Below are positions 1,701 to 53,069 of a DNA stretch of 64,000 bases, piece after piece. Position 1 is the stretch's first letter. Every line of letters starts with the position of its first letter. A program made the position numbers and the translations under genes. The stretch comes from a bacterium (GTDB lineage: Bacteria > Desulfobacterota > DSWW01): the NCBI GenBank assembly GCA_028277985.1, contig JANQFG010000265.1, forward strand, positions 6,832 to 70,831, written 5' to 3'. The notes beneath the pieces are model-generated. The model searched no databases, had not been told where the DNA came from, and saw nothing but the letters and a program-made list of their open reading frames with translations.

Positions 1701-1900
1701 TAGAAATTGACCGGACGGTGGCTTATGGATTTCTTTAATGGAAATAGGTGAATAGGGGGGAGCGTTCGACGGAACCGAAGAGGAAGAACTGGGAGAAATC
1801 CCGTTTTGTTGAGACAGCTTCCTCCGTGGTTGTCGGTTCTCTTCTTGGTGGGCCGGAAAGGAGGGCAGGCTGAATATTGGCCGGCTAACAAGTTTTTTGG

Positions 1901-1911
1901 TTGACCGGTCA
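1901..1911. promoter_or_regulatory. TTGACCGGTCA: perfect 10-bp palindrome TGACCGGTCA overlapping a -35-like TTGACC
   Basis: Read directly, about 90 nt upstream of start codon 2002. It has the same TGAC-N2-GTCA core as 1688-1697, 56134-56143 and 59661-59670. Confidence 0.4.
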
Positions 1912-2001
1912 CTCAATATGGTGTAACTGTAGCATGAGGGCAAGGTCCGTCCGGAAGAGACAACGGGAGAATTGCAGGCTCACTCGAGAGAGGGGGTAAA
2001 C

Positions 2002-4917
2002 ATGCAAGGGGTAAAGCTGGATCTCCTGAAATCCATCGTAGGGGAGCAGAACGTTTCTCTCGGGTGCGATGGGGGGCGCAAGTTTCTTCGACCTGGACAA
2101 GCGGCCCCGCATCTGATTGTCGTGAGCCCATCGGATGACGAAGAGGTGCAGAGGATAGTCAATCTGGCGCGCGAGGAGAAGACCGCGATCGTTACGGTCA
2201 ACGACCGCTATCTGCTGGAAGAGGACCTGGAAAAGGAGGGGATTCTTCTCGATTTCTCACGGATGGACAAGATCGAGAGAATCGACGCGCCGAACCTGAT
2301 CGCCCACGTCCAGCGAGGCGTGACCTGGGAGCAACTCAACGCGGAGTTGGGTAAGCAGGGCCTGAGAGCGGTCGCGCCGGTTGCAGCCAACTCGGAATCG
2401 GTTGCCGAATCCTGTGCCGCTAGAGCGGTCGGGAAGGCCGCAGCGAAGTACTGGGATTATTCCGTCACCAACTTGAGGGTCGTCCTTTCGAACGGAAGGA
2501 TTCACAAAACAGGAACCCACGGTTTCAATGAAGAAGCGAGTGACGGGAGGAGCGAGGGGGGGCCGAACCTTTCGAACTGGTTCACCTGCTCGGACGATAT
2601 TTTCGGTGTGATGACCCGGGCCACGATCATGCTCTGGCCCGCCTACGAGACCCGTACCTGCCTTGTTGTATCTTTCGAAGATCAGGATGAATTGCTCAGG
2701 GCCATGAGGGACCTTCCCCGCACGGAGCTCGGTGTAGAATACGTGGGACTCAACGGCGCCTACCTGAAGAACCTCCTGGGAGAAAATGCGGAGGCGTCTC
2801 CTTCCTGGGCCCTGGTAATAGGTCTCGAAGGGCGTTCCAGGCTGGTAGAGCATCATCGGGATAGACTTCTGAGCCGTCTGAAGGAATACAACTGCAGCGA
2901 GATAGAGAATCTGGTCGGCCCGATGACCGAGAAACTGGACCTCCCGTGGATGGAGGCGAGCGAGAATCACACCGCCTTCTTCACCTTGTTCTCCAGGTTG
3001 AAGAAAATGGATGCAGCGGTGGACAAGGCAGCCTCCTCTGCGGATGTCTCCTCGGGGAAAGTGGGCAAGGTCTTCGTGTCCTTTGACTGCGGAAGGGCGG
3101 TGTACGCTGTCTATGATTGGTTCGTGGACCCGCACCGGGGTGAAGAGATCAAGACCCTGAACCTGGCACTGTCAGATCTGGGGGCGTGTTTCGAGCGGCC
3201 CCACGGGAAGCTTGGGCGAAAGATCTATACGAGTATCCAGAATCACCTGCCGGTGCTGAAGCAGATCAAGGGGGTCCTGGACCCGGAGAACATCATGAAT
3301 CCCGGCCGCATTCTCACGGAGGAGGACGCGGGTTGGGAACCGCTTCAGGTGGGTAAGGGGGATACGGAACTTACCGTATCGAAGGTCCATGAAGTCAAAG
3401 AAAGACTGTCCGAGGCGGTTGGCGAGGAGTGGGTGAGCGACAATCCCGCCGACTTGAGCTCTTACGGCCGCGATTTCACTATCTTCTCCGGAGAGCGGCC
3501 GAACATCGTGGCGATGCCTGCATCCACCGAAGAAGTGCAGAAGATCGTTCGTATCGCATACGAATACGGGATTCCCGTGGTCCCGCAGTGCAGCGGCTTC
3601 AATCACGGAGGCCTATCGATCCCCCGAAAGGGCGGGATCCTGGTGGACCTTCGTCGCATGGACCAGGTGTGCGAGATCGACGAAGAATCGATGACGGTTA
3701 CAGTGAGTCCGGGCCTGCGCATGCGATACGTCTGGTGGGAGGCGGTCAAACACAGGGCAACGGACGGATTTCACTTGAAGCCGATCCTGCCCATGACATT
3801 CGGCAGCGTCTCCCTGCTCTCCAACTATGTTTCCCGCGGCGGTGCGGGCATGGCGGTCAAGTACGGAATCAACGCGGATCTCTCGTCGGACATGACCTGG
3901 GTGCTCCCGAACGGAGAGATCCTCAAGGTGGGTGCGAGCGCGATCCCGAAGGTGGGCAAGGTTCCTCTCCATTACTCCCCGGGTCCCGACCTGTTCGGCA
4001 TGTTTTTCAATGCGGACGGAATGTTCGGCATCTGCACGGAACTGACGGCCAAGCTCTACCCGGAACGGGACGAAACCGAGGGGCTCGAGGAGATCATCAC
4101 CTGCGCCAATTTCGGGGACGACCACCATCGTGCATTCTGCCTGGCCGTCGAGGCGATCCGAGACATCGCACAAGAGAACCTGGCGGACTTCATGTACAAG
4201 GCCCATCCCGGCATGGTTGCCCTGACGATCGTCAACAACCTCGAGGGCTTCACGGTCCCGGGTGTTATCGGCATGTCACCTCAGCACCCCCTTTCGATCC
4301 TGGTCTGCGGATACGACGCGGAGGAGACGGCGATCAAGAAGGAGATCGTGAGCGAGATCGTGGCGAAGCATGAGCTCATGGTGATGGATCCGGCCATGTT
4401 CGGCCAGGAAATGCAGGATGCTGCGGGAAGCATGGATCCCCTGAAGAAGAGCCTGGGCATCAAGGACAATTTCCTCGGAACCTATCAAGGGGCGTTCCAG
4501 TGGACCGCCTGCTTCATGAAGCTGGAGAAGATTCCGCAATATGCTGTCGAATATGACGCGTTGGTGAAGAAGTACTGGAAGACATCGGACCCGAAGATCG
4601 CCACCGAACACGCCATGACGGGCACCGACATCCAGGGGCCACTGCCCTTCGGCCGCTTCAGCGGCGTGGAGATAGACTTCTGGTGGGATCAGGGGAACCC
4701 GGAATCGGTGAAGCGCGCCACCGTCATCATGCACAAGGCGCACAAGCTGATGTTGAAGCACGGGGGGTTTCTGTATCGGAACATGTTCGGTTCGGGAGAG
4801 TATCATCTTCCTCTATGGGGAGAGTATTACGATATGCTGAAGAAGACGAAGCAGACCTTCGATCCTGCGAACCTGATGCATCCTGATGTCCTGCCGCTCA
4901 CGGATGATTATGTCTGA
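2002..4917 (+). CDS. Internally duplicated VAO/PCMH-type FAD-binding oxidoreductase (paralog 1 of 3, 971 aa)
   Basis: Start set at ATG 2002 (SD GAGAGGGGG). There are two tandem FAD_binding_4-like units. The C-terminal half is canonical (PNIVAMPASTEEVQKIVRIAYEYGIPVVPQCSGFNHGG...GSVSLLSNYVSRGGAG). The N-terminal half aligns to it but is degenerate. Strong paralogy to 47846-50770 and 56418-59339. Confidence 0.85.
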   Translation: MQGVKLDLLKSIVGEQNVSLGCDGGRKFLRPGQAAPHLIVVSPSDDEEVQRIVNLAREEKTAIVTVNDRYLLEEDLEKEGILLDFSRMDKIERIDAPNLIAHVQRGVTWEQLNAELGKQGLRAVAPVAANSESVAESCAARAVGKAAAKYWDYSVTNLRVVLSNGRIHKTGTHGFNEEASDGRSEGGPNLSNWFTCSDDIFGVMTRATIMLWPAYETRTCLVVSFEDQDELLRAMRDLPRTELGVEYVGLNGAYLKNLLGENAEASPSWALVIGLEGRSRLVEHHRDRLLSRLKEYNCSEIENLVGPMTEKLDLPWMEASENHTAFFTLFSRLKKMDAAVDKAASSADVSSGKVGKVFVSFDCGRAVYAVYDWFVDPHRGEEIKTLNLALSDLGACFERPHGKLGRKIYTSIQNHLPVLKQIKGVLDPENIMNPGRILTEEDAGWEPLQVGKGDTELTVSKVHEVKERLSEAVGEEWVSDNPADLSSYGRDFTIFSGERPNIVAMPASTEEVQKIVRIAYEYGIPVVPQCSGFNHGGLSIPRKGGILVDLRRMDQVCEIDEESMTVTVSPGLRMRYVWWEAVKHRATDGFHLKPILPMTFGSVSLLSNYVSRGGAGMAVKYGINADLSSDMTWVLPNGEILKVGASAIPKVGKVPLHYSPGPDLFGMFFNADGMFGICTELTAKLYPERDETEGLEEIITCANFGDDHHRAFCLAVEAIRDIAQENLADFMYKAHPGMVALTIVNNLEGFTVPGVIGMSPQHPLSILVCGYDAEETAIKKEIVSEIVAKHELMVMDPAMFGQEMQDAAGSMDPLKKSLGIKDNFLGTYQGAFQWTACFMKLEKIPQYAVEYDALVKKYWKTSDPKIATEHAMTGTDIQGPLPFGRFSGVEIDFWWDQGNPESVKRATVIMHKAHKLMLKHGGFLYRNMFGSGEYHLPLWGEYYDMLKKTKQTFDPANLMHPDVLPLTDDYV

Positions 4918-4961
4918 ATATGCATGAAGTAGATCTGATCCATAAGGGAGGAGGCGTCGAC

Positions 4962-5411
4962 GTGGAGAAAAGACCCAAGGGTTTGTTTGCAGTGGACAAG
5001 TTTTTTGACCGTACGCCGGATGGCCCGGTTCTGGTGGGCTCCCGGTGTACCGAGTGCGGGAAGGTCGCATTTCCCCGGAAGAAAGTGTGCATCAAGTGTT
5101 TTCGAAACGACTGCATGGAGGTGCACCCTCTGTCGAAACGCGGGGAGATCGTGACTTATTCGATCGCTCACATGAGCCACATCGGCATGGCCACGCCGTA
5201 CGCGTTCGGATATGTCTATCTACCTGAAGACAACATAACGATCTACAGCCTGTTCGAAGACTGGGACCCCCCGGAGGAGAAACTGTTCATCGGGCAGCAG
5301 GTCGAACAGTGCGTGGATGTGTTCCGAGAGGATCCATGGGGGAATTCGATTGTCACCTATCTCTATCGGTGTATCGGTACAAAACCGGATTCTCAAGCTG
5401 CCGCGAAGTGA
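4962..5411 (+). CDS. DUF35-type Zn-ribbon/OB-fold protein (thiolase partner)
   Basis: Contains CTECGKVAFPRKKVCIKC, a four-Cys zinc ribbon, followed by an OB-fold-like region, and sits directly upstream of an SCPx-type thiolase. Start placed at GTG 4962, 7 nt after a strong SD AAGGGAGGAGG. ATG 4920 is the alternative start. Confidence 0.75.
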   Translation: MEKRPKGLFAVDKFFDRTPDGPVLVGSRCTECGKVAFPRKKVCIKCFRNDCMEVHPLSKRGEIVTYSIAHMSHIGMATPYAFGYVYLPEDNITIYSLFEDWDPPEEKLFIGQQVEQCVDVFREDPWGNSIVTYLYRCIGTKPDSQAAAK

Positions 5412-5450
5412 AGTCCCGGGAAAAGGACGCGTATCACAGGAGGAGCTGTA

Positions 5451-6638
5451 ATGGGAAGACCAGGAACCGATGTGTACGTCGCGGGCGTCGGGATGACCCG
5501 TTTTGGTATACACATGGACAGGGATATCCGTGATTTGTGCGAAGAGGCGTTCTTCGAGGCGATGGAGGACGCAGGGGCGTATCCGGACGATATCGAGGCC
5601 GGCTACATCGGAACGGTGGGATTTGCGTGGGATGCGCCTATCATGGCGGGACAGATCGCCTTTGAGCAGGTCGGTGTGACAGGGATTCCGATCACACGGA
5701 TCGAGAACGCGTGCGGGAGCGGCTCGAACGCGATCCGTGAGGCATGGCTGGCGGTCAAATCCGGGGAATACGACGTGGCCATGGCAAGCGGAGTGGAGAC
5801 GATGAATCGTCCGCTCCAGGACCAGATTCCTCGGTTCGCCATGTTCGGGGGGGGAGATGCCATGATGGAGGGAACCATGGGCCTGTTCCCGCCCGGGATC
5901 TTTGCGATGGTGGCGCAGCGTTACCTGAACGAAGGGTGGATCACACGGGAGGACATGGGGATCATAGCGGTAAAGAACGCCTATCACGGATCGATGAACC
6001 CGAAAGCCCATTATCAACGGACGTTGACCATGGAGAAGGTGCTGGATGCCCGCATGATTTGCTACCCTCTCGGGCTCCTCGACTGTTGCCCCACCACCGA
6101 CGGCGCAGCCGCTGTCGTCATGTGCTCGGAAGAAGCTTTGCCTCGTTTCCGGAAGCATGCGCCGGTGAGGATACGGGCCCTCACCCAGACTTCGGGCACC
6201 TACTGCGAGGACAATCCGCGGGAATTCACTGCTGACAGCGTGGTGCGAGCAGCAAGGATGGCGTATGAAAAGGCGGAGGTTTCGCCGGAAGACATCGACT
6301 TTGTGGAATGTCACGATTGTTTCACCATGGCCGAAATCGTGCACACCATCGATCTGGGCTTCTGCGAGAGAGAAGAGGTGGGCAGGTTCATTCGGGATGG
6401 AAACACCCAACTAGACGGGAAGATACCTTTCAGCGTGTCCGGCGGCCTGATGAGCAAGGGACATCCACTGGGGGCGACCGGTCCGGGTCAGTATCACGAG
6501 GTGGTCACACAGTTGCGTGGCGAGGCAGGAAAGAGGCAGGTGAAGGATGCTCGGCTCGCTCTGCACGAAAACGGAGGTGGTTTTCGGCACGGCGATACGG
6601 GAATCGTCTGTGTATCCATCCTCGAAAGGGCTGATTGA
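5451..6638 (+). CDS. SCPx/nonspecific-lipid-transfer-type thiolase
   Basis: Motifs DVYVAGVGMTRFG, NACGSGSNAIREAW (nucleophilic Cys), ECHDCFTMAEI and GGLMSKGHPLGATG. SD AGGAGGAG upstream. Confidence 0.9.
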   Translation: MGRPGTDVYVAGVGMTRFGIHMDRDIRDLCEEAFFEAMEDAGAYPDDIEAGYIGTVGFAWDAPIMAGQIAFEQVGVTGIPITRIENACGSGSNAIREAWLAVKSGEYDVAMASGVETMNRPLQDQIPRFAMFGGGDAMMEGTMGLFPPGIFAMVAQRYLNEGWITREDMGIIAVKNAYHGSMNPKAHYQRTLTMEKVLDARMICYPLGLLDCCPTTDGAAAVVMCSEEALPRFRKHAPVRIRALTQTSGTYCEDNPREFTADSVVRAARMAYEKAEVSPEDIDFVECHDCFTMAEIVHTIDLGFCEREEVGRFIRDGNTQLDGKIPFSVSGGLMSKGHPLGATGPGQYHEVVTQLRGEAGKRQVKDARLALHENGGGFRHGDTGIVCVSILERAD

Positions 6639-6662: not shown

Positions 6663-7088
6663 ATGAACAAAAAGGGCTTTCAGAAGAAGAGCGAGGCGTT
6701 TTTCAAGCGGAACAAGAAGGCGATGGCCAGAGTCGTGCACATGCTGCCGGCCCCGCCCATGATCTACCTGATGTTCGATGTGACCCTGCCTCGGATCGTC
6801 AAGAAGAAAGAGTACAAGAAGTTCAAGGGAACCAAGATGGATTTCCAGTTCACCTTCACCGAGATGCCCGGCAGGAAATCCTGGGTGGTGGACATCGACG
6901 ACGGCAGGGTGCGGGTCTTTCGGGGTGAGAAGGACTATCCCCAGATGGTGATCAACGCCTCGGCCCGCGATTTCGTGGACATGACCACGGGCTACCTTCC
7001 CGAAACCAAGGCAATGCAGTCCGGACGATTGGCCGTGAACGGAGGGCCCGTAACCAAGATGAAGACGGTCATGGGCCTTTTCGGTTGA
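6663..7088 (+). CDS. SCP2 sterol-binding domain protein
   Basis: Contains WVVDIDDGRVRVFRG...INASARDFVDMTTGYL...AMQSGRLAVNGGPVTKMKTVMGLF, a typical SCP2 topology. Confidence 0.7.
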   Translation: MNKKGFQKKSEAFFKRNKKAMARVVHMLPAPPMIYLMFDVTLPRIVKKKEYKKFKGTKMDFQFTFTEMPGRKSWVVDIDDGRVRVFRGEKDYPQMVINASARDFVDMTTGYLPETKAMQSGRLAVNGGPVTKMKTVMGLFG

Positions 7089-7103: not shown

Positions 7104-8213
7104 CTATTTCGATCCTTCCGTAGCCCCCTGGAGCGACTCCATGATGGCCGCGTCGAGGGCCTTGTGATCCCACGGCGGGGAAGGGGCGTCTTCCCGCGGC
7201 TCCATGGAGAGGGCCTCGGACGGGCATGCCGAATTGCAGAGCCCGCATCCGATGCAGCGTTTGAGGTCCACTCGGACGAGCTCGTCTTCAACGGCGAGGG
7301 CGTTCGTCGGGCAGCGTTCCACGCAATCCTCACAGCCGATACATGCCTCTTCGTCAATCTTGAGCCGGTAACTGGACACGGCCCCTATGGACGGCATGTC
7401 CAAATCCTGTAGGCTCTTCACGATCCCGCAGTGGCAGGCGCAGCAGTTGCATATGAAGTCGATGTACTTGGATGTGTTGGAAGACATGTGAACCAGACCA
7501 GCCTCCTCCGCCTCCTCGAGGACCTTGAGCGCCTCCTCCCTGGAAACGAGTTGGCCGTAGCCTCTCTCATCGGCAAACTTGGCGTTGGGTCCGAAGGCCA
7601 TGCAATTCTGCTTCGGCTTTTCGCATGGCTCTCCCAACAATTCGCCATAGTGACGGCAGTAGCAAGTGGACAGGGATATGTACTCCGAGTTCCGGACATA
7701 CTCGGATAGGGCCTGGTAAGGGAGAATCTCGCTTCCGCCTGCAACTTCCTTCTCCACCGGGATCACTCTGGAGAAGGGAGTGATCTTTCGCATGAACTCG
7801 AGGTTTGCGCCCACGGTGAACTCCGACATCTTGTCGAAGTATGCCTTGAACAGGCGGGCCATCTTCTGGTCGTGTTCGGTGGTTCCGCCCTTCATGAACT
7901 GGAACTCGAAGAAACCGGGCAGGACCGCCATCAACTTGTAATGGGGCTTCTCCTTTCGTACCTGGTGGAAGACCAGCCCATTGTCTGCCATGCTCTCCAG
8001 CAAAGGCACGATTTCATCGACAGGCCGATCCGTGTGTTCGCTGATCGCCTCAACGGTCTGCATGCCCAGAGGCATTGCTGCAGCCAGTTCCGCTTCCTCA
8101 GGGTTGAAGAGTGCGCGGATCAGTGCGGTGAACTCATCGCACTTGAAGATCGGGATTGCTCCACCAATCAGCATGAGGTTCTCGATGAGTCTGTCGTATA
8201 CGGTGTCGCTCAT
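7104..8213 (-). CDS. 4Fe-4S dicluster domain protein with extra CNCCACHC cysteine motif
   Basis: Start trimmed to MSDTVYDRL (SD GAGGAG). The C-terminus has CIGCEDCVERCP and CIGCGLCNSACP. Upstream cysteines are STCYCRHYG..PCEKPKQNC and FICNCCACHCG. Confidence 0.75.
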   Translation of the reverse strand: MSDTVYDRLIENLMLIGGAIPIFKCDEFTALIRALFNPEEAELAAAMPLGMQTVEAISEHTDRPVDEIVPLLESMADNGLVFHQVRKEKPHYKLMAVLPGFFEFQFMKGGTTEHDQKMARLFKAYFDKMSEFTVGANLEFMRKITPFSRVIPVEKEVAGGSEILPYQALSEYVRNSEYISLSTCYCRHYGELLGEPCEKPKQNCMAFGPNAKFADERGYGQLVSREEALKVLEEAEEAGLVHMSSNTSKYIDFICNCCACHCGIVKSLQDLDMPSIGAVSSYRLKIDEEACIGCEDCVERCPTNALAVEDELVRVDLKRCIGCGLCNSACPSEALSMEPREDAPSPPWDHKALDAAIMESLQGATEGSK

Positions 8214-8601
8214 GGCGTTCTCCTCGGGGCCTATGGGATTCAAAGGACGATTGAAACAGGCTAGCAACGTCCTCATTGGCGTGTCAAGGGAGCAGCATCT
8301 GACACGTTCCCCGAATGCATACAAAATGTCCAGTGACCTTTCTTTCTTGACACACTATTCTTCATGACCTAACCTGATTCCGTCCGAACAGATTTCCTGT
8401 CTCACGGACGACGTGACCTTCCTGAAACACGAAAGGGATCAAGTCGTTCTCAGCAACCTGTTCGGGGACGAGGTGAAGGGGAAGAAGGAAGAGATCCGGT
8501 TCATGGATCAGAAGATTCTGCTCAGTGAAGCCATCTAGCGGGAAGACTCGTATTCCCAGCGTGGCCGTAGAGCTGCGAAGCCCATTCCGCGGTACCGAGC
8601 C

Positions 8602-10934: not shown

Positions 10935-12515
10935 TCACAAGAAATGCCCTGCTACCCCCGCGATGACTCCATACAGAATCATCGGCAGTATCGTTCTCTT
11001 CAGAATGAATCCTTCCTGATTCGCAATGCCCAGAATAGAGCAAACGGCAACAATATTGTTTATGCATACCATGTTTCCCAGGGCCCCGCCAACGGACTGC
11101 AGGGTCAGGACGACGATTCGATCGAGTGCAAGGTCTGTCGCAATGGAGTACTGGATGCCGCCGAAGGTCAGATTCGAAATCGTCGCCGAGCCTGAAAAGA
11201 AAGAGCCAAGCGCTCCGAGGAAAGAGGCAACGTATACCCAGGAGTTGCCCGCCACACCAGCGAAGCCGTGCCCGATAGTGAGCACCATGGAGCGATCTCC
11301 ACCTACCATCAGGAGCTTCACCATCACCAATGCGCCGAGTAGGGCGATGATTGTGTAGACCATGCGCGTATAGGATTCTGATGTGATGCGTATCATGACA
11401 GGTGTTTTCAGTCGGTACACAACGAAGGACAGCCCCGAGACAAGAAAGAAAGGGATGAATGCGGGAACATAGAGGGCTTGGAACACCCAGGTGCTTTGTG
11501 CCTGAAAGATATCTTTGAGAACCAGAACAAGTGAGAGGCTCGCGGTGAAGTTCCCCAGGGAGCCCAAGCCGATTTCCATGGCGGGCGTAGCGTCATTGAG
11601 AAAGCTTTTGATCCCCAGTTGTTCGATCCGCGTAACGAGAAGCACCAGGACGGTTGCCCACAGGGGAAAGAGTGCCCTGATCAACTGACCATAAGAGGTG
11701 CGTGCCGCGCTCTCGCGTCTTTCGCTGCTCGAGGAGAGCCCGATCCCTGAGCGTGCCAGAGCAACTGAAATCAGAAAGCCGATCATTCCCGCAAGAAGCG
11801 CAGGGAACTCGTAGTTGTAACGCGCCACGAGCACATAAGGGGCGACACAGCTCAGGATAGAGAGGTAAACGAATACCAGATTCGACCGGAGCTCTCGCCA
11901 ATCGACCACAGCCAACAAGGCAATGACCGGGATAACGAGCGCAGCAAAGGCATGGACCACGGCAGAGTTGAAACCGATCCGCAACATCTCGGCTTCGCTG
12001 AGACCCAGCTGCCCCATCCCAAACCAGGTTGGTGTGCCGACGGCACCGAATGAGACCGGGACAGAGTTCATGATGAGTGCGAGCACCGCTACCCGTACGG
12101 CGGGGAAACCCAAACCGACCAGGATCGGCGCGGCAAGAGCCGCAGGCGTTCCAAAACCGCTTGCTCCTTCAATCATGAAGGAGAAGGCCCAGCCAATGAT
12201 CATGAGCTGTGCAATCCGATTGCTGCTGACACCATTGAGCCAGTCCCGGACAATCGTCATGGCCCCGGAATGTTCCATGGTCTTGAACATGAAGATGGCG
12301 CCCCAGATGATAAGAATGGGCGTCAAGGCGGTGAGCAGTCCGTTCAGAACCGTTGCGTTGATCAGGTTGGCATTATCGCCGAAGTACACGAGCTTTATGA
12401 GGTAAACAAGCACTGCAACGGCTGGAAGCGCGATGTGGGACGGTGTTCCGTTCTTCTTGGTCATCAAGAAGATGAGAATGGCAATCGGAGCAATGGAGAC
12501 GAGAAGGTCGGCCAT
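10935..12515 (-). CDS. L-lactate/glycolate permease family (LctP) transporter
   Basis: 526-aa polytopic membrane protein whose N-terminus and length are typical of the LctP family. Confidence 0.7.
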   Translation of the reverse strand: MADLLVSIAPIAILIFLMTKKNGTPSHIALPAVAVLVYLIKLVYFGDNANLINATVLNGLLTALTPILIIWGAIFMFKTMEHSGAMTIVRDWLNGVSSNRIAQLMIIGWAFSFMIEGASGFGTPAALAAPILVGLGFPAVRVAVLALIMNSVPVSFGAVGTPTWFGMGQLGLSEAEMLRIGFNSAVVHAFAALVIPVIALLAVVDWRELRSNLVFVYLSILSCVAPYVLVARYNYEFPALLAGMIGFLISVALARSGIGLSSSSERRESAARTSYGQLIRALFPLWATVLVLLVTRIEQLGIKSFLNDATPAMEIGLGSLGNFTASLSLVLVLKDIFQAQSTWVFQALYVPAFIPFFLVSGLSFVVYRLKTPVMIRITSESYTRMVYTIIALLGALVMVKLLMVGGDRSMVLTIGHGFAGVAGNSWVYVASFLGALGSFFSGSATISNLTFGGIQYSIATDLALDRIVVLTLQSVGGALGNMVCINNIVAVCSILGIANQEGFILKRTILPMILYGVIAGVAGHFL

Positions 12516-12824
12516 GACGGTGATTTATGCCTCAGCTTTCGGAAGAGCGGCGTAGATCCTGTTCAACGTCTGCCCTGATGGCTGTCTAGAGATGGGACGA
12601 GCAGAGAGGCAACTAAGACCTTGGATGAAGCTGTTGGCCGAGAAGTTCCAATGGTTTCCCATGTCCGGCTTCCTCGGCGCAACCGTCCTGAGTGTGCTCG
12701 GATGAAATCTCGGGCTTTTCGTCAGCAGGTTGAATTTGCAGGGATATCAACTATCATCGTAGAGGCTTGCATCGTGGAGTGCTCGTCCCAGGCCGTGAGG
12801 TTGGGCAAACAGGAGGTATCGGTC

Positions 12825-14273
12825 ATGAAGAAAGTCATTGTCATTGGAACCGGCGTCGGCGGAGCCGCGGTCTCCGCGCTTCTTGCTCAGAAGGGTTTCT
12901 CGGTGACTGTCTTCGAAAGGAGCGACTTTGAAGGGGGAAAGGCCGCGAGCTATGAGAGGGACGGGTTCGTCTGCGACATGGGGGTGCACTTCACGGCACG
13001 GGGGTCAAACGGCCCCCTGGGGGAAGTAGCGCGCCTCGTGGATGCGGACCTAAGGTTCTGCGAACCGGACCCGGTCATGCGGATCGTGACGCCGTCCCGG
13101 AGCTACGATTTCTCCCCGCACCTTCTCAGGCCTCTCTCCCTCGTCAAGCAGGCGCTTATTGCGGGTGTGAAGGCGTGGAACCTCCCCGGTGCGCTCCGGT
13201 TGTTCCGGCAGATTGTCAACATCAGCCGGGAACGGGACGCGACTGTCCACGACTCGGTTTCCATGCGGGACTTTCTTCTCCGGTACACGGGCGACGAGGG
13301 TATCCACCGACTCGTGAACATCTTCTCCGGGCTCATGTTCGTCATTCCCCTTGAGGACGCCTCGGCTGGTGAGTACCTCTGGTCCTTTGTGGGTATGGCC
13401 AGAACCGGGTCCCTGGGGTACCCAATCGGCGGCTTCGGCCAGATCGCAAGATCGTACCTGCGGGCCTGCGAACGCAACGGCGGTGAGGTTCATTTGAAGG
13501 AGGGCGCCCGATCGATCCGGGTGGAGAATGGAAAGGTTGTGGGGGTCGAGACCGAGAAGGGGTTCTACGAAGCGGACCTGGTGGTGAGCAACGTTGGGAT
13601 CCGGAAGACGATCGCCATGGCTGGGGAGGATTGTTTTCCCGCGTCCTACACGGCGGACGCAAAGAAACTCAGGGATTCCCTCGGGGCCGTAACCGTCAAG
13701 TATGCACTGGATCGCCGGCCTTTCGATATCCCCATTCTCGTATACATGCCTGAGGACATGGACTGGAGCCGGAACATGGAGATGATGTCAAGGGGCGAGG
13801 CACCGGAGGATATCCCGATCTTCCTTCCTTGCCCTACCAACTGCGACCCTTCACTGGCACCCCCGGGCAAGCACGTTCTTCTGGCCGGTACAGCGGTCCC
13901 GGCAGACCTGTCGGCCTCGGACATGGCCGACACGATCCTGGACCGGATGGAACGGAGAATCCCCAAGCTACTTCCGGGAATCGAGAAACACATCCTCTGG
14001 AAGCACCGCACGAACCTCTCCTACATCGACGGGATGGGAGGCCGCGGAGCGGGTGAGGTGATTGGCCTTGCCCAGTCGTACGACCAGGTGGGGGAGAACA
14101 AGCCGGACCCGCGCACGCCGGTGGAGGGGCTCTACCTGGTAGGCTGCGACGCGGGGGGACGCGGCATCGGCACCGAACAGGCCGCCGACAGCGCACTCAA
14201 GGTAAGAGAGATGATCCTGTCGGAAACGCAGACCCCTGAAATGGTCGTGGCAGAAGCGCAGGTCCCCCGGTAA
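12825..14273 (+). CDS. CrtI/phytoene-desaturase-family NAD(P)/FAD-dependent oxidoreductase
   Basis: Start trimmed to ATG 12825 (SD AGGAGG). Reads MKKVIVIGTGVGGAAVSALLAQKGFSVTVFERSDFEGGKA, with C-terminal LYLVGCDAGGRGIGTEQAADSA. Confidence 0.8.
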   Translation: MKKVIVIGTGVGGAAVSALLAQKGFSVTVFERSDFEGGKAASYERDGFVCDMGVHFTARGSNGPLGEVARLVDADLRFCEPDPVMRIVTPSRSYDFSPHLLRPLSLVKQALIAGVKAWNLPGALRLFRQIVNISRERDATVHDSVSMRDFLLRYTGDEGIHRLVNIFSGLMFVIPLEDASAGEYLWSFVGMARTGSLGYPIGGFGQIARSYLRACERNGGEVHLKEGARSIRVENGKVVGVETEKGFYEADLVVSNVGIRKTIAMAGEDCFPASYTADAKKLRDSLGAVTVKYALDRRPFDIPILVYMPEDMDWSRNMEMMSRGEAPEDIPIFLPCPTNCDPSLAPPGKHVLLAGTAVPADLSASDMADTILDRMERRIPKLLPGIEKHILWKHRTNLSYIDGMGGRGAGEVIGLAQSYDQVGENKPDPRTPVEGLYLVGCDAGGRGIGTEQAADSALKVREMILSETQTPEMVVAEAQVPR

Positions 14274-14348
14274 CAGGGTGCCGAGATCGGCAACAAGCGT
14301 AGTTTCACCTAGCTGTGAGAGTGCGGAATCCTTGGTCCAACACGCGAG

Positions 14349-15554
14349 CTAATCGGCTGCCGGGATCCTGTAGCGGCGAAAGACGAGCCGGTGCAGCATG
14401 TTCTTGAGCACCGTGTCTCCCATGCCCTGGACCTCGAATTCGTTCCGAAGGAAGTCAGCGGTGTCCCGGATGGCCTTTGCCTTGTCGGCGAGGCTCAATC
14501 CATGAAGCATGCCGGGTTGCTTTGCCATGGATGAAGCGCTCGAAGCCTTCATCCGCAGAGGATTGAACTGGTCAAGGGCTGTTACCATTTCCGGTTTGAC
14601 GAGTTGCTTGTAGAGAGTCAGGGCATCGACACCCTTGTGGACAGCCTGGATCACGGCCTCCCCGGCATAGCCGCCGCTTGCGAGCGCACAGGAGATTCCT
14701 TCTCCGCCCTGGTGCATGAGCCCCATGGCATCCCCTACCATCAGCACGTTGCCACGGCCCGGGAAGAAGCGGTTCAGAGGGGTCATCGTGTTGGAGGGGC
14801 AGGCCTCCATGGCCAGTTCGCGTTTGATCTGGAGGCCGAGGTTCTTCTTGAGGAAATCGACAAAGAGCTGGAACCGGCTCTGGAAGTTGTGGCCCTTTAC
14901 CAGGGCCAGGCCGATGATGATCTGGTCGTCCTTCAGGTTCATCCACGGGAAAGGTCCCATGTTCCGGGTGAGGAACCAGTGCAGATAACGGTCGTCGGCG
15001 TCGATCTTCCCCTCGAAGTACTTCTGACATGCGTAGGCCCATGGCAGGCCCTGGTAGACATCTGGGGCAAAGGTGCGGATCACGCGGGAGTTGCCTCCGT
15101 CGGCACCGATGAGGTATCGGGCCCTGACCTTCGTGATCTTTTCGTTCCGTTTGAGATGGGCGACGACTTCCGCGCCGTCGTGTTCCAGGTGTAGAAACCT
15201 CGTACGGTCCCGAAGCACCGCCCCGGATGACTTGGCCAGGAAGTGATCGAACTTGTCTCTCCAGACGTAGAGGTTGTAGCAATCCACGTCCGTGTAGACC
15301 ATACCGACCGTTGGGAAGTAGAAACCCATTCCCCTCGAGATGTTCGGCCTGCTGAAGGCCTTCTCCGGTATGGGTCCGAAGTTCTCGAACACGTAATTCT
15401 GTGAAACGTTCGAGATAATCCCGGAACAGGCTTTTCTCCTGGGCAGTTTGTGCTTGTCGATCAAGAGGGTCTTCAAACCCCCGTCTACGCACTTCCTTGC
15501 TGTGGCCGAACCTCCGGGTCCTGCGCCTACAACGAGAACGTCGAACTTCTGCAT
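14349..15554 (-). CDS. Geranylgeranyl-reductase-family FAD-dependent oxidoreductase
   Basis: Contains MQKFDVLVVGAGPGGSATARKC...LLIDKHKLPRRKACSGIIS and ...VLMVGDAMGLMHQGGEGI. Confidence 0.75.
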   Translation of the reverse strand: MQKFDVLVVGAGPGGSATARKCVDGGLKTLLIDKHKLPRRKACSGIISNVSQNYVFENFGPIPEKAFSRPNISRGMGFYFPTVGMVYTDVDCYNLYVWRDKFDHFLAKSSGAVLRDRTRFLHLEHDGAEVVAHLKRNEKITKVRARYLIGADGGNSRVIRTFAPDVYQGLPWAYACQKYFEGKIDADDRYLHWFLTRNMGPFPWMNLKDDQIIIGLALVKGHNFQSRFQLFVDFLKKNLGLQIKRELAMEACPSNTMTPLNRFFPGRGNVLMVGDAMGLMHQGGEGISCALASGGYAGEAVIQAVHKGVDALTLYKQLVKPEMVTALDQFNPLRMKASSASSMAKQPGMLHGLSLADKAKAIRDTADFLRNEFEVQGMGDTVLKNMLHRLVFRRYRIPAAD

Positions 15555-15646: not shown

Positions 15647-15735
15647 AAAAGATATGGATAGCAATGTCGGCCGCTTATGTCAAGGCATTTGTCGCACAGG
15701 GAGGCCGAAAGGAGGCTCCTGAGGCGCGTGACAAA

Positions 15736-15778
15736 AGGAAATTTCCTGTTGACAATTTTGCTACGAAATTGGTATTTT
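15736..15778 (+). promoter_or_regulatory. Sigma70-like promoter of the CrtI-GltD operon with abutting 12-bp perfect palindrome
   Basis: AGGAAATTTCCT (15736-15747) sits next to TTGACA (15749-15754), followed by a 17/18-nt spacer containing TACGAAATTGG and then TATTTT (15773-15778). An imperfect inverted repeat GATATTAG/CCAATATC lies at 15781-15804. Confidence 0.55.
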
Positions 15779-15844
15779 TTGATATTAGAAATTTTACCAA
15801 TATCGAAAGACAGGCGAGAACGCACCCATGCGGAGAGGGTGAGC

Positions 15845-18745
15845 GTGCGCATTCTGGAAGATGCGACCCTGCGGGATCGCTATCAAGTGGTCGTGGTCGG
15901 TTCGGGCATCGGGGGCCTGACGGCCGGGGCCCTGCTGGCCAAGAGGGGGCTCGAACCGCTCGTGATCGAGCAGCACTATCTGCCGGGTGGTGCCTGCACC
16001 ACCATGCGGCGCAGGGGCATAACCTTCGACGTGGGCGTGGGCATGATGTTCGGTTTCGGGGAAAGAGGGTTCAACCCCCATCGTTTCGTGATGAACGAGA
16101 TCGAGGAAGAAATCGATGTGATCCCCCACGAGTGCCTGTACCAGATGAAGATCATGGGGCGGGACCTCACCTTCTGGCGGGATTTCGAACGGTACTTTTC
16201 GGAGTTGGCGGCCCTGTTCCCCCAACAGGAGAAGGAGTTGCGGGATCTGTACGACTACTTCTACGAGCTGTACGAAGAGATGATCCTCAAGAATGAAGTG
16301 GTCGTGCCCCCAACGGAAATACCGGTGAGGGAGAGCCTCAAGAGCTTCCTGAAGAACCCCCTGGGCATGGTTCGGATCATCCCCCTCATGTTCAAGAACA
16401 CGGAAAGCCTCGTCAAGAGATTCATCACGGATCCGGACGTCATCGCCTTCTTCAACATGCTCACCTGTACCTACTGCTACTGCGACGCCAGAGAGACCCC
16501 GGCGATGCTTTCCGGCGCCCTGTTCTGCGACAACCACGAGGGGGGAGCCTTCTATCCGGCCGGTTCGCCCCAGATGCTCTCGAACAAGCTGGAGAGGGCC
16601 ATTGAGAAGCACGGCGGCCGGGTGCTCTATCGCCGCCTGGTGGATGAGATCCTGATCGAGAGCGGAGAAGCCTACGGGGTGAGGCTCGACGACGGCACCG
16701 AGATCCTGGCCGACCGGGTAGTGGCGAACGCCACGATCTGGAATCTGTACGGAAAACTGGTGAAGCCGCGACACATCGAACCGGAACGAATGGCCTGGGC
16801 TCAGGGCTTCGTACCGACCTTCGGAAGCCTTGTCCTGTATCTGGGAGTGGATGCGGAAGCGGTCCCGGAGGGGACTCCGCCGATCCTGATGTTCGTCGAA
16901 GATATGTACAATATCACGGGGAATGACATTACCGTCTACATATCCTCGGTCGACGATCCAACCTTGTGCGCACCCGGCATGCATTCGATCACCGTTGTCC
17001 AGCCCTCCATGGTCGAATGGCCTCGCCCCTCTGACCCGGAATACGCGTCAGAGAAGTATCAACGCTTGAAACGTGAAGAGGCCGACAAGCTGCTCGATCA
17101 GGTGGAAGAGCATTTTCCGGCTCTACGGAAGCATATCCGGGTCATGGAGGTAGGCACGCCGACCACCATAGAGCGCTTCACCCTCAAGAACTGGGGAGCG
17201 GTCGGTGGGCCGAAGATGATGATGGGGCAGGACATGATGAAACGCCTCCATGCCCGCAGCGACTGGAAGAACCTCTACGTTTGTGGTGATTCCACGGTCA
17301 TGGGCATCGGAATCCCTGCTACGACCGTGTCGGGCGTGGGTGCCGCCAACAGGGTCCTGCGTGACTTGGGGCAAGAGGAATATGCTCCCCGCTCTTTTGT
17401 CCGGGAGTATATCCACTATGTGAAAGGACAACCCTGGACCCCGGCGCCGGACGCCTCGGCACCGATCACAGAGGATTCGGCCGGACGAATTGCCCGGGAA
17501 TGCCAGCATTGCGAAGAGCCTTCCTGCCGGAACGCCTGCCCGGCAGGCATCGAAACGAGCTATTTCGCGCGCCGTGTGGAAGCCGGCAACTTCGAGGGCG
17601 CGGCCCGTGCCCTGAGAGAGGTGAATCCCTTTTCCGAGGTCTGCGGTGTCATCTGTCCGGCCGAACGATTCTGTGAAAAGAGCTGCAGTCGTCTGGATTT
17701 CGATGAGAAGCCGGTAAGGATCAGAGATCTGCACGGCTGGGTCTGCAGTCACGTTTCAAGATCACGCGGATGGGACCGCTGGATTCCGGCACAGAAGAAC
17801 CTCAAGGTGGCGGTCGTCGGTGCCGGTCCCGCCGGCCTCACCTGTGCCCATTATCTGGCCCGGCTCGGCTATCGGGTGGATATGATGGACAAGGCATCGA
17901 AGCCCGGGGGGATGCTGAACCATGCGATCCCCGTCTTCCGACTGGGGGACGACGTCGTGGCGAGGGAAGTCGAGGGATTGACCATTCCCGGAATGAGGTT
18001 TCATGGCGGCAGGGCTCTGGGAGAAGACTTCACCGTTGAAGAACTGGAATCGGACTATCGTGCAGTGTTCCTGGCGCCGGGGTTGTGGTCCGGGCAGCAA
18101 CTGGACATACGGGGTGCAGACAAAGTCAATACGACGGATGCCCTGGATTTTCTGAAGAACTGTCGGACATCCGGAACAACAACGGTCGGGAAGAGGGTGC
18201 TGGTCATCGGGGGAGGCAGTGTGGCATCGGACGCGGCTCTGTCGGCCGGTCGTGTCGGCGCTGCAGAGGTTGCGTTGGTCTGCCTCGAGACCCGGGAAGA
18301 CATGCCCTGTCTCGAGAGTGAAGTGGATGAGATGAACCGCAGGGGAATCCGGATCGAAGACGGATGGGGCCCCCGGGAAATCCTCTCCGGATCGGAGATG
18401 TCCTTTGTCCGTTGCACTTCCGTGTTCGATGATCACGGGGGATTCGATCCCGTGTTCGACGAGTCCGAGGCGATGGAAATGGAATTCGACCAGGTGATTC
18501 TCGCGGTGGGTCAGCGCGTAGAGCCCGGCCTGGCCGGGTACCTGGAAGAGGCCTTTGGCCGGGGCGATCGGCTGGAGGTGGATCGGGAGTCCATGCAGGT
18601 GGTCGGCCGAAGCCGGGTATTTGCCGGTGGAGACATCGTTCGTGGCGCGGGCACCGTGGTGGAGGCGGTGGGGGACGGCAGGCGCGCGGCCATGGGAATT
18701 GACAGGCGGCTGGGCGGTAGCGAGACGCTACAGGTCACGGAGTGA
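15845..18745 (+). CDS. CrtI-like flavoenzyme fused to GltD-like 2x[4Fe-4S]/FAD/NAD(P)H module (paralog 1, 966 aa)
   Basis: GTG start at 15845 aligns exactly with the paralog N-termini (V/M-RILEDATLRDRYQVVVVGSGIGGLTAGALLAKRG), with SD GGAGAGGG upstream. The CrtI part ends at GDSTVMGIGIPATTVSGVGAAN. It is followed by CQHCEEPSCRNACPAG, NPFSEVCGVICPAERFCEKSC, VVGAGPAGLTCAHYL, VIGGGSVASDAA and VFAGGDIVRGAGTVVEAVGDGRRAA. Confidence 0.85.
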   Translation: MRILEDATLRDRYQVVVVGSGIGGLTAGALLAKRGLEPLVIEQHYLPGGACTTMRRRGITFDVGVGMMFGFGERGFNPHRFVMNEIEEEIDVIPHECLYQMKIMGRDLTFWRDFERYFSELAALFPQQEKELRDLYDYFYELYEEMILKNEVVVPPTEIPVRESLKSFLKNPLGMVRIIPLMFKNTESLVKRFITDPDVIAFFNMLTCTYCYCDARETPAMLSGALFCDNHEGGAFYPAGSPQMLSNKLERAIEKHGGRVLYRRLVDEILIESGEAYGVRLDDGTEILADRVVANATIWNLYGKLVKPRHIEPERMAWAQGFVPTFGSLVLYLGVDAEAVPEGTPPILMFVEDMYNITGNDITVYISSVDDPTLCAPGMHSITVVQPSMVEWPRPSDPEYASEKYQRLKREEADKLLDQVEEHFPALRKHIRVMEVGTPTTIERFTLKNWGAVGGPKMMMGQDMMKRLHARSDWKNLYVCGDSTVMGIGIPATTVSGVGAANRVLRDLGQEEYAPRSFVREYIHYVKGQPWTPAPDASAPITEDSAGRIARECQHCEEPSCRNACPAGIETSYFARRVEAGNFEGAARALREVNPFSEVCGVICPAERFCEKSCSRLDFDEKPVRIRDLHGWVCSHVSRSRGWDRWIPAQKNLKVAVVGAGPAGLTCAHYLARLGYRVDMMDKASKPGGMLNHAIPVFRLGDDVVAREVEGLTIPGMRFHGGRALGEDFTVEELESDYRAVFLAPGLWSGQQLDIRGADKVNTTDALDFLKNCRTSGTTTVGKRVLVIGGGSVASDAALSAGRVGAAEVALVCLETREDMPCLESEVDEMNRRGIRIEDGWGPREILSGSEMSFVRCTSVFDDHGGFDPVFDESEAMEMEFDQVILAVGQRVEPGLAGYLEEAFGRGDRLEVDRESMQVVGRSRVFAGGDIVRGAGTVVEAVGDGRRAAMGIDRRLGGSETLQVTE

Positions 18746-18826: not shown

Positions 18827-18848
18827 ACAAAAGAGAAAAGAGGAGCCC

Positions 18849-24691: not shown

Positions 24692-24776
24692 AAGATCAAT
24701 AAAGACCCCGGGACGGAGTGGTCACCCGTGGTCCTTCTGTTTCTTGTCACCTCGACATGGCAAAGGGGGGAGGCAT

Positions 24777-32083: not shown

Positions 32084-32100
32084 TGTGAGGGATGTTCGTC

Positions 32101-47792: not shown

Positions 47793-47845
47793 AGCCATAT
47801 CCTCCACAGTGTCTAGGGTCTTCTGATCATCACGTCCTGGAACAC

Positions 47846-53047: not shown

Positions 53048-53069
53048 ACAGAAGACCCCACTCTGAAGA

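Follow-up and report, generated by a model that had tools for sequence, protein, structure and literature searches.

Described relatives and the locus analysed

Few catalysts can functionalise C-H bonds with water in place of O2, and the flavoenzymes of the vanillyl-alcohol oxidase (VAO)/p-cresol methylhydroxylase (PCMH) superfamily are among them. In the 4-phenol-oxidising subgroup, phenolate substrates are bound by a triad of residues (Tyr95, Tyr473 and Arg474 in PCMH; Tyr108, Tyr503 and Arg504 in VAO), and the flavin is attached covalently to Tyr384 in PCMH and to His422 in VAO. We describe here a gene for a 971-residue member of this superfamily, located at positions 2002-4917 of a 64,000-nucleotide stretch (the window) of contig JANQFG010000265.1, from a genome of the Desulfobacterota (assembly GCA_028277985.1). 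Its product joins two VAO/PCMH-type modules in a single chain, in the order alpha'-alpha. The family to which it belongs is, as a whole, uncharacterised, and this fusion is a conserved variant of a known enzyme architecture, not a system of a new kind.

The PCMH flavoprotein (PchF, 1DII/1WVE), with the 4-phenol-oxidising subgroup around it (8S7x, eugenol oxidase, 4-ethylphenol oxidase), is the top profile match of the catalytic half of our protein (116 bits). The family would share with PCMH the logic of an O2-independent dehydrogenase and the use of a separate electron-carrier subunit. It differs from PCMH in that the partner is an iron-sulfur protein with CCG domains, not a c-type cytochrome, and in that its second VAO-fold module lacks the flavin motifs and is fused to the first. 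Distinct alpha and alpha' flavoprotein subunits are also attributed to the PCMH of Geobacter metallireducens in the passage of a preprint that cites Johannes et al. 2008 (bioRxiv 10.64898/2026.01.30.702948).

The glycolate dehydrogenase GlcDEF of Escherichia coli is alike in its three parts: one VAO-type flavoprotein is canonical, the second VAO-type protein is divergent, and the third subunit is HdrD-like, carrying two [4Fe-4S] motifs and two CCG domains. As in the N-terminal module studied here, the first glycine loop of E. coli GlcE is weakened ('QGSNSKAF'); nothing decisive was found in the literature on FAD (flavin adenine dinucleotide) binding by GlcE, whose role has been described as unknown (bioRxiv 10.1101/2024.12.15.628547). 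The same preprint (Toth et al.) reports, in the benzene-degrading Desulfobacterota ORM2a, the "Magic" proteins #24-26, which are two VAO-type proteins with an Hdr/GlcF-like iron-sulfur protein between them, predicted to form a GlcDEF-like heterotrimer and encoded beside an AMP-forming CoA synthetase and CoA-ester enzymes; FAD binding by protein #24 was supported by AlphaFold3 and DeepFRI. Finally, D-lactate dehydrogenases of the GlcD/LDHD type (mouse LDHD, 8JDx; LctD, 7QH2) provide the best sequence match of the N-terminal half and the top structural matches of our protein. Unlike in LDHD, the FAD loop and the catalytic segments of the N-terminal half are replaced, and the C-terminal half matches LDHD in the FAD domain only.

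Architecture of the 971-residue flavoprotein

The gene starts with ATG, about 7 nt after a GAGGGGG Shine-Dalgarno sequence, and its product is 100% identical, over the same 971 amino acids (aa), to the database protein P0001 (P-numbers label database proteins, and L-numbers, L001-L034, label contigs with family members). Its features, with the support for each, are the following.

2002-4917, plus strand: flavoprotein gene, copy 1 of 3 in the window, fused alpha'-alpha VAO/PCMH-type, 971 aa, 108 kDa (ATG 2002 to stop 4917)
2002-3315, plus strand: N-half, aa 1-438, alpha'-like module with FAD_binding_4 fold and cap, flavin motifs degenerate (Pfam, 74 bits)
2194-2238, plus strand: degenerate pyrophosphate loop T65-VNDRYLLEEDLEK-E79 of the N-half (aligned with LDHD 'FGTGTGVEGG' and C-half 'SGFNHGGL')
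3316-3375, plus strand: linker between the modules, aa 439-458, 20 residues (sequence conservation, AlphaFold2)
3376-4914, plus strand: C-half, aa 459-971, PCMH-like module predicted to bind FAD and to be catalytic (Pfam, 85 bits; PCMH 1dii top in profile-versus-PDB search)
3589-3615, plus strand: canonical pyrophosphate loop C530-SGFNHGG-L538 of the C-half (conservation in 75 homologues)
3805-3867, plus strand: second glycine-rich FAD motif S602-VSLLSNYVSRGGAGMAVKY-G622 of the C-half (conservation)
4774-4782, plus strand: Y925-R926-N927, aligned with Tyr473-Arg474 of PCMH, the phenolate-binding pair (hmmsearch, C-like profile against PCMH 439-510)

The Pfam domain FAD_binding_4 occurs twice, at aa 39-171 (74.1 bits, E 1.2e-20) and at aa 500-643 (85.1 bits, E 4.7e-24), both above the gathering cut-off of 26.4 bits, so that each half belongs to the VAO/PCMH superfamily. 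Each half ends with a weak FAD-oxidase_C tail and closes with the motif 'DP.N(I/L)(M/L)(N/H)P'. Because aa 1-454 and aa 455-971 align collinearly over their whole lengths in BLASTP (24% identity, E 5e-15), the internal repeat is well beyond chance. The two collinear FAD_binding_4-like units proposed in the first-pass annotation are thus confirmed, as are its descriptions of a canonical C-terminal unit and of an N-terminal homologue with replaced glycine-rich segments. The latter is exact for this protein and true across the family: both halves are homologous to FAD_binding_4, and the FAD-contact residues are retained in the C-half only.

In the C-half, G532, F533, N534 and G537 of the pyrophosphate loop are invariant among the 75 full-length homologues, and H535 is His in 74 of them. 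Ten residues of the second motif (S602, S604, L606, S607, N608, Y609, R612, G613, K620 and G622) and two further glycines (G673, G676) are likewise invariant. Used as a single sequence, this half has as its best PDB matches vanillyl-alcohol dehydrogenase (8S7x), LctD, PCMH and eugenol oxidase, and the family profiles place PCMH (1DII) first, with 106.6 bits for profile A1 and 116 bits for profile A2. The profile alignment spans two regions, the FAD domain and a second stretch in the cap. The first includes an insertion typical of the subgroup ('GMGGVPGSNTWQIFKWGYGPTLDG' in PCMH versus 'GASAIPKVGKVPLHYSPGPDLFG' in the C-half); the second aligns PCMH 439-510 ('IDVLYDRTNPEETKRA...GYAVYRVN') with 'IDFWWDQGNPESVKRA...GGFLYRNM'. 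Both proteins share the insertion 'G..VPG......GxGP' and the cap motif 'D.(W/L)(W/Y)D.(G/T)NPE..KRA'. Most of the cap is not alignable to PCMH by HMMER; it is also unaligned with LDHD, where only 'GEYH' (E933 invariant) resembles 'GEHG' of LDHD. A set of sequences chosen as GlcD-type references for this half proved to be another, non-GlcD family (17-21% identity to E. coli GlcD) and was left out of the comparison.

The phenolate triad is present only in part. R926, at the position of PCMH Arg474, is invariant, as is N927, while position 925 (Tyr473 in PCMH) varies between paralogues (Trp in 22, Phe in 20, Ile in 18 and Tyr in 14). No equivalent of Tyr95 was found in the profile alignment, where 'GYG' of PCMH faces 'G-G'. 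In a region that HMMER leaves unaligned, matching 'GTYQGAFQWTA' by eye with the published PCMH motif 'NWRGGGGSMWFAPV' would put Gly826 at the position of Tyr384. Because the triad is incomplete, we regard the C-half as PCMH-like in sequence yet outside the definition of a 4-phenol oxidiser. PCMH, one of the relatives listed in the first-pass annotation, and vanillyl-alcohol dehydrogenase are the closest to the catalytic half. The others on that list did not hold as closest relatives: cholesterol oxidase and DHCR24 appear in none of the returned PDB match lists, and alkyl-DHAP synthase (AGPS) reaches the FAD domain of the N-half only (70.8 bits).

In the N-half, the segment T65-VNDRYLLEEDLEKE-G80 occupies the position of C530-SGFNHGGL, and 'SCAARAVGKAAAKYW' that of 'NYVSRGGAGMAVKYG' in the C-half. 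Loop composition was counted over the 75 full-length fused homologues and 30 standalone sequences, and across both sets the pyrophosphate loop of the N-type module has lost Gly and gained acidic residues. For the 75 homologues, the pyrophosphate loop contains on average 2.97 Gly and 0.01 Asp+Glu in the C-half versus 0.25 Gly and 3.53 Asp+Glu in the N-half, and the second motif has 3.65 Gly in the C-half versus 0.93 in the equivalent N-half segment; the third glycine motif is depleted in the N-halves too. The glycine-rich motifs that contact the FAD pyrophosphate/ADP are therefore found in the C-half and are missing from the N-half, whose degenerate loop is itself conserved (consensus T-x-NDRYLL-x-EDL). 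The best PDB sequence match of the N-half is LDHD (8jdc, E 8e-14), along whose whole length the family profile of this half aligns; AGPS is its other best-aligning relative, over the FAD domain. In this alignment, 'VNDRYLLEED' stands where LDHD has 'FGTGTGVEGG', and 'VSVDRGRAVY' and 'RPHG' stand where it has 'GHVGDGNFH' and 'GEHG', with loss of the catalytic His and Glu of the conserved His-His-Glu metal/substrate site. From these replacements we consider the N-half to be a pseudo-enzyme. It is under weaker constraint than the C-half, with 33 invariant columns out of 445 versus 96 out of 502, and it diverges more in every paralogue pair (e.g. 36% versus 56% identity to P0072).

An AlphaFold2 model was computed without cofactor from the 75-sequence alignment. 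Its mean predicted local distance difference test (pLDDT) score is 84, with most of the N-half above 90, and its predicted TM-score (pTM) is 0.88. Confidence is lowest in two FAD-contact loops of the C-half (531-541, the minimum, and 598-601), as expected for a cofactor-free model. The pTM indicates a confidently predicted relative arrangement of the halves, which may or may not pack as a VAO-family dimer does. Foldseek matched complete two-domain VAO-type enzymes (LDHD, vanillyl-alcohol dehydrogenase, PCMH, eugenol oxidase (EUGO) and LctD) with target-normalised TM-scores of 0.70-0.79; the probability was 1.00 for LDHD, PCMH and VAO-type structures, with LDHD at the top. Residues 433-458 have no regular secondary structure in the model, and the region aa 440-470 contains no invariant column. 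In split gene pairs such as that of L025, the place of the linker is taken by the C-terminus of the first protein, the intergenic gap and the N-terminus of the second.

Origin, distribution and iron-sulfur partner of the family

The 75 full-length homologues (964-1002 aa, 46-85% identity) have the same architecture and linker. In GTDB, taken with one genome per species, the fused form was found only in metagenome-assembled genomes (MAGs) of uncultured Thermodesulfobacteriota (Syntrophobacteria or Desulfatiglandales) and in MAGs labelled 'bacterium'. Database names for these proteins stop at 'FAD-binding oxidoreductase', 'FAD/FMN-containing dehydrogenase' and, for a few JGI entries, 'glycolate oxidase'. 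Each genome has three or four fused paralogues. The other copies in the window, both located by tblastn, are the following; a fourth, P0033, lies elsewhere on the same 156.5-kb contig.

47846-50770, minus strand: paralogue 2 (P0018), 974 aa, 65% identical to copy 1
56418-59339, plus strand: paralogue 3, 64% identical to copy 1 and 70% to copy 2, with degenerate N motifs and canonical C motifs as in the other copies

Both modules also exist as separate proteins. When the N-half was run in a full HMMER scan, the fused proteins ranked first, followed by many standalone proteins of 430-470 aa, aligned end to end at 30-38% identity and all already without the glycine loop; the C-half profile returned many standalone C-like proteins of 515-545 aa (35-46% identity). 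In BLASTP, standalone N-like proteins match the whole N-half at 34-38% identity (E 1e-87 to 1e-99) and standalone C-like proteins match the C-half at 38-45% identity (E 1e-118 to 1e-159), versus 23-24% identity (E 1e-12 to 1e-14) between the two halves in the same searches. Standalone N-like and C-like genes are neighbours in L027/L028, L029 and L033/L034, from other Desulfobacterota. In L025 an N-like gene is separated by 24 nt from a C-like gene, and the first 123 residues encoded by the latter align closely with aa 455-575 of our protein.

Since each half is far nearer to its standalone counterpart than to the other half, the 971-aa protein is a fusion, in the order alpha'-alpha, of the long-diverged genes of an old alpha'/alpha heteromer. 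Since standalone N-like proteins are already degenerate and their genes adjoin C-like genes, the duplication and the loss of the flavin motifs predate the fusion. These results revise two points of the first-pass annotation. Its domain "duplicated in tandem" with later decay of one copy does not agree with the identities given above. Its single-chain version of a homodimer fits less well than heteromers such as GlcD/GlcE/GlcF, given the split N-like/C-like gene pairs and the CCG protein as third subunit. The annotation also overlooked this iron-sulfur component and the affinity of the catalytic half to PCMH. Head-to-tail duplication of a single VAO-type gene within this lineage, with decay of the N-terminal copy, would account for halves that are collinear homologues throughout and share their terminal tail, but both the identities and the degenerate standalone N-like proteins encoded beside C-like genes speak against it, and we judge it very improbable. 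An artefact in which a sequencing or assembly frameshift, or a lost stop codon, joined two adjacent genes is hardly conceivable: split pairs with very short intergenic gaps do exist, but the 75 fused homologues come from NCBI, ENA, JGI and Logan assemblies, three copies occur in the window, and the length of the linker is conserved.

Three other database proteins of 890-990 aa (P0167, P0180 and P0225) are fusions in the reverse order, in which a GlcE-like module follows a canonical GlcD-like one ('GAGTGLSGG'). Unlike in these GlcD-GlcE fusions, the degenerate module comes first in the 971-aa protein. Given this opposite order, VAO-type heteromers have been fused more than once.

The iron-sulfur protein that accompanies the family has 409-415 aa, two CxxCxxC...CP [4Fe-4S] motifs and two CCG domains, and is HdrD/GlcF-like. 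In all split operons seen (L027, L029 and L033) its gene adjoins the two flavoprotein genes or separates them; among the fused loci it comes immediately after the flavoprotein gene in L002/L003/L019, L014-L017 and L021-L024, and lies within 7 kb of it in L004 and L011. The CCG protein of the fused system of L002 is 51-54% identical to those of the split systems of L027 and L029. The nearest NCBIfam models are TfrB, LdhH, GlpC, TmcB, GlcF and DsrK, all below cut-off (64 bits for GlcF, against a cut-off of 333). The family therefore has the three components of a GlcD/GlcE/GlcF-type system, as seen in the split operons and in the fused genes followed by a CCG gene.

This composition does not make it a member of GlcDEF, because the NCBIfam equivalog scores are far below cut-off (GlcD TIGR00387, 155.7 versus 567.9 bits; GlcE NF008439, 15 versus 284 bits) and the BLASTP matches to the E. 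coli subunits are weak. Indeed, the sequences are remote from those of GlcDEF: GlcD reaches the FAD domains only (44 and 77 bits), GlcE the C-terminal tail (E 0.01-0.03), and GlcF matches with E 3e-6. Moreover, in contrast with GlcDEF, the catalytic half is PCMH-like, not 2-hydroxyacid-dehydrogenase-like, and the neighbouring genes are of beta-oxidation type. The "Magic" cluster resembles L033 in its gene order (flavoprotein, iron-sulfur protein, flavoprotein) and differs from the 971-aa fusion in having separate subunits; its iron-sulfur protein lacks most of the Cys of the second CCG motif, whereas the CCG proteins of the family keep 'CCG' and 'CPFC'. The sequence similarity to the "Magic" complex was rejected as specific evidence of kinship: the CCG proteins of the family match a fragment of protein #25 (157 aa) at 33-35% identity, but an unrelated CCG protein of 261 aa scores equally.

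Possible membrane- or quinone-linked electron outlets are encoded beside two of the split operons. L027 has, at 1713-6261, genes for a NarI-like membrane protein, Rieske and cytochrome b subunits and a Fer4-CCG-cytochrome c fusion, and L033 has, at 12660-14710, genes for a NarI-like protein, a Fer4 protein and a CCG protein of 261 aa.

Gene neighbourhood and proposed function

Copy 1 leads a tight operon in which the flavoprotein gene is followed, with gaps of 3-40 nt, by DUF35, thiolase and SCP2 genes; a recurrent neighbour of the family is encoded near copy 2.

4920-5411, plus strand: DUF35 gene, ChsH2/BbsA-like zinc ribbon and OB-fold (Pfam zf-ChsH2, OB_ChsH2_C; NCBIfam BbsA 74.7 bits, below cut-off)
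5451-6638, plus strand: SCPx/BbsB-type thiolase gene (Pfam Thiolase_N, Thiolase_C_1; NCBIfam 'thiolase domain-containing protein' 374 bits, BbsB 245 bits)
6663-7088, plus strand: SCP2 lipid-carrier-domain gene, end of the apparent operon (Pfam SCP2)
46740-47807, minus strand: gene for a 355-aa NAD_binding_8 flavoprotein, recurrent neighbour of the family (Pfam)

The DUF35 gene starts 3 nt past the stop of the flavoprotein gene and recurs beside fused and split members. Thiolase homologues are encoded near family members in L002, L011, L014, L016, L017, L019, L027, L029 and L033, and the split pairs of L027, L029 and L033, like the fused gene of L001, have an SCP2 gene beside them. Copy 2 belongs to a same-strand run that also encodes a short-chain dehydrogenase/reductase (SDR), a BaiCD-like old yellow enzyme (OYE), a molybdenum oxidoreductase and the 355-aa flavoprotein, and that is repeated in L031, L004 and L013. 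Homologues of the 355-aa flavoprotein (33-38% identical) are found by family members in L001, L002, L004, L007, L013, L017, L019, L023, L027 and L031, and OYE homologues in L004, L011, L013, L029, L031 and L033.

The split systems have richer surroundings. The gene order is DUF35, thiolase, PaaK-like ligase, acyl-CoA dehydrogenase, CCG, N-like, C-like, SCP2, enoyl-CoA hydratase, acyl-CoA dehydrogenase, SDR, OYE in L029; SDR, DUF35, thiolase, PaaK-like ligase, SCP2, N-like, CCG, C-like, Fer4, AOR-type (aldehyde ferredoxin oxidoreductase) in L033; and C-like, N-like, CCG, a 356-aa flavoprotein, SCP2, DUF35, thiolase and, further on, AOR-type in L027. In L010 an AOR homologue directly follows the fused gene; in all, three split operons and one fused locus have an AOR-type gene nearby.

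We consider it probable, with some reserve, that the 971-aa protein unites in one chain the alpha' and alpha flavoprotein modules of a dehydrogenase that resembles GlcDEF, works without O2 and has a lipophilic acid or CoA ester as substrate. In this proposal, the C-half would hold the one FAD of each chain and the substrate would be oxidised by hydride transfer to it. The N-module would be an alpha' pseudo-subunit free of flavin, serving to stabilise or complete the catalytic alpha module, to dock the redox partner, or both, and electrons would exit through an iron-sulfur partner, i.e. the CCG protein in split systems and in one fused clade. The enzyme would serve the anaerobic degradation of a lipophilic carboxylate or CoA ester, as suggested by neighbours that include DUF35 and thiolase, SCP2, PaaK-like ligase, SDR, acyl-CoA dehydrogenase, AOR-type and OYE-type genes; this context makes plausible the lipophilic substrate already proposed in the first-pass annotation. 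The likeliest step would be an oxidation, PCMH-style and independent of O2, that turns an alkyl or alcohol group into an aldehyde. AOR would then convert the aldehyde to the acid, the PaaK-like ligase would form the CoA ester from it, and cleavage would follow by a Bbs-like beta-oxidation involving SCP2. As the position of PCMH Tyr473 is variable, the paralogues probably handle different substrates.

Several points weigh against this proposal. The N-half scores near the C-half on the whole Pfam domain (74 versus 85 bits), and its cap keeps invariant polar residues (R240, E246, D313, W316, H323, R365, D372 and R399), so that this half may bind some ligand and not be inert; motif loss is the single argument from which one FAD per chain would follow. 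Alternatively, the N-half might bind FAD through a non-canonical loop and the protein be a two-flavin enzyme, which would agree with a score well above the Pfam cut-off, a confidently predicted fold and the conservation of the replaced motifs. We hold this to be quite unlikely: all three glycine-rich FAD-contact segments are replaced, the loop of the N-half is shortened and has 3-4 acidic residues that would repel the diphosphate, and the constraint on this half is the weaker one.

As regards the reaction, the phenolate triad is incomplete, with no Tyr95 equivalent and a variable Tyr473 equivalent, and the alkyl- or alcohol-to-aldehyde step is read from the neighbouring genes. GlcD is the best NCBIfam match, though far under its cut-off, and a lactate-permease gene (10935-12515) lies 6 kb from copy 1. 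These last two points, together with LDHD as top Foldseek match and a CCG partner as in GlcDEF, would fit a fused D-2-hydroxyacid (D-lactate or glycolate) dehydrogenase of the GlcD/GlcE/GlcF or Dld-II type. We find such an enzyme unlikely, since the GlcD match covers mainly the FAD-binding domain of each half, the profiles put the catalytic half nearest to PCMH, with PCMH-specific insertions and cap motifs, and E. coli GlcE matches through a 20-residue C-terminal tail only, with GlcF weak as given above. Furthermore, the conserved neighbours are thiolase, DUF35, SCP2 and CoA ligase genes, not lactate or glycolate genes, and each genome carries several paralogues, which differ in a pocket residue.

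The electron outlet of the proposed lipophilic-substrate dehydrogenase is a further difficulty at our locus. No CCG gene was detected in the 64-kb window (tblastn with two CCG protein queries, 1e-5), nor within 10 kb of the fused homologues in L001, L007, L010, L013, L018 and L031. For the window, this implies that the electron partner is a different ferredoxin-type protein or is encoded elsewhere, as in the genome CAYLMK01, which has three fused copies with at most two nearby CCG genes between them. At 7104-8324 on the minus strand, a gene encodes a 406-aa protein with a C-terminal 2x[4Fe-4S] Fer4 domain and extra Cys-rich motifs ('FICNCCACHCG'), which is 85% identical to a protein encoded near the orthologous fused gene in L001. 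It could be an alternative redox partner where no CCG gene is nearby.

The rest of the window is rich in flavoenzymes. It encodes seven CrtI/CrtISO-like flavoproteins, three of them fused to GltD-like modules. These three are tandem fusions of unusual architecture, about 960-1020 aa long, on the plus strand (15677-18745, about 18843-21737 and 21797-24691), in which a carotenoid-isomerase/CrtD-like part (Amino_oxidase) is joined to GltD-like Fer4_20 and Pyr_redox_2 domains. The same fusion follows the homologous locus in L001, and its domains suggest an NAD(P)H-linked saturation or desaturation of an isoprenoid-like chain. Four single-domain CrtI-like genes and a geranylgeranyl-reductase-family gene (TIGR02032, 128 bits, below cut-off) lie at 12621-14273, 24744-26333, 26424-27935 and 32092-33417 on the plus strand and at 14349-15554 on the minus strand. 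Also present are two SnoaL-like genes, an AcrB pump and TetR and MarR regulators, and in L002 Caroten_synth genes adjoin a homologue. The genes of the window named here are no more than a hint of isoprenoid-like or polycyclic substrates; the CrtI-like and geranylgeranyl-reductase-family genes, with the Caroten_synth genes of L002, point tentatively to isoprenoid substrates for the whole gene island.

Two OYE and Pyr_redox_2 iron-sulfur flavoenzymes are encoded at 28857-30917 (plus strand) and 53070-55028 (minus strand), with a domain make-up that we take to recall 2-naphthoyl-CoA reductase; the second scores 546 bits with BaiCD and 523 bits with bilirubin reductase, both below cut-off. As listed, the open reading frame of the Fdh-alpha/PhsA-like molybdenum oxidoreductase (50888-53137, minus strand, 749 aa) overlaps this upstream OYE gene by 68 nt, and its true start is probably further downstream. 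This enzyme is a conserved neighbour of copy-2-type genes (L004, L013 and L031).

In the 450-nt leader before copy 1, the palindrome TTGACCnGTCA occurs in two exact copies on the plus strand (1687-1697 and 1901-1911). No other exact copies were found in the window, and one-mismatch matches are at chance level overall. A TetR/MarR-type regulator may have its operator in this pair. Scans for promoters and terminators between 1500 and 8500 found no more than chance would give.

Cys-rich proteins with an N-terminal hydrophobic segment that by eye resembles a signal peptide are encoded next to family members on three different contigs (534-1547 on the minus strand of the window, 6263-7498 in L001 and 16588-18365 in L004). 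The copies of the window and of L004 have MopE-type metal-binding motifs, and Pfam finds nothing in the L001 protein.

A bolder proposal, which we consider unlikely as a whole, is that the fused and split relatives make up a class of enzymes so far unrecognised: PCMH-like hydroxylases/dehydrogenases that work without O2 and are coupled to HdrD-type iron-sulfur subunits. Such enzymes would act on non-phenolic lipophilic substrates (isoprenoid, alicyclic or aromatic acids) in uncultured relatives of sulfate reducers. They would belong to the same architectural class as "Magic" #24-26, which have been put forward for the anaerobic activation of benzene, and their flavin-free half would not be inert but give a second ligand or CoA pocket or an iron-sulfur docking site.

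Heteromeric and fused VAO-type enzymes were already known, and no established concept is changed by the present one. The fusion fixes a 1:1 pairing of a catalytic and a predicted flavin-free module, which should ease expression, stoichiometry and structure work compared with split systems and makes this protein a tractable model for the role of the "dead" VAO-type subunit in GlcDEF-like enzymes. For the organisms concerned, a conserved multi-paralogue family in beta-oxidation-type operons marks an unexplored anaerobic route, whose substrates are probably lipophilic, in uncultured Thermodesulfobacteriota (Syntrophobacteria and Desulfatiglandales).

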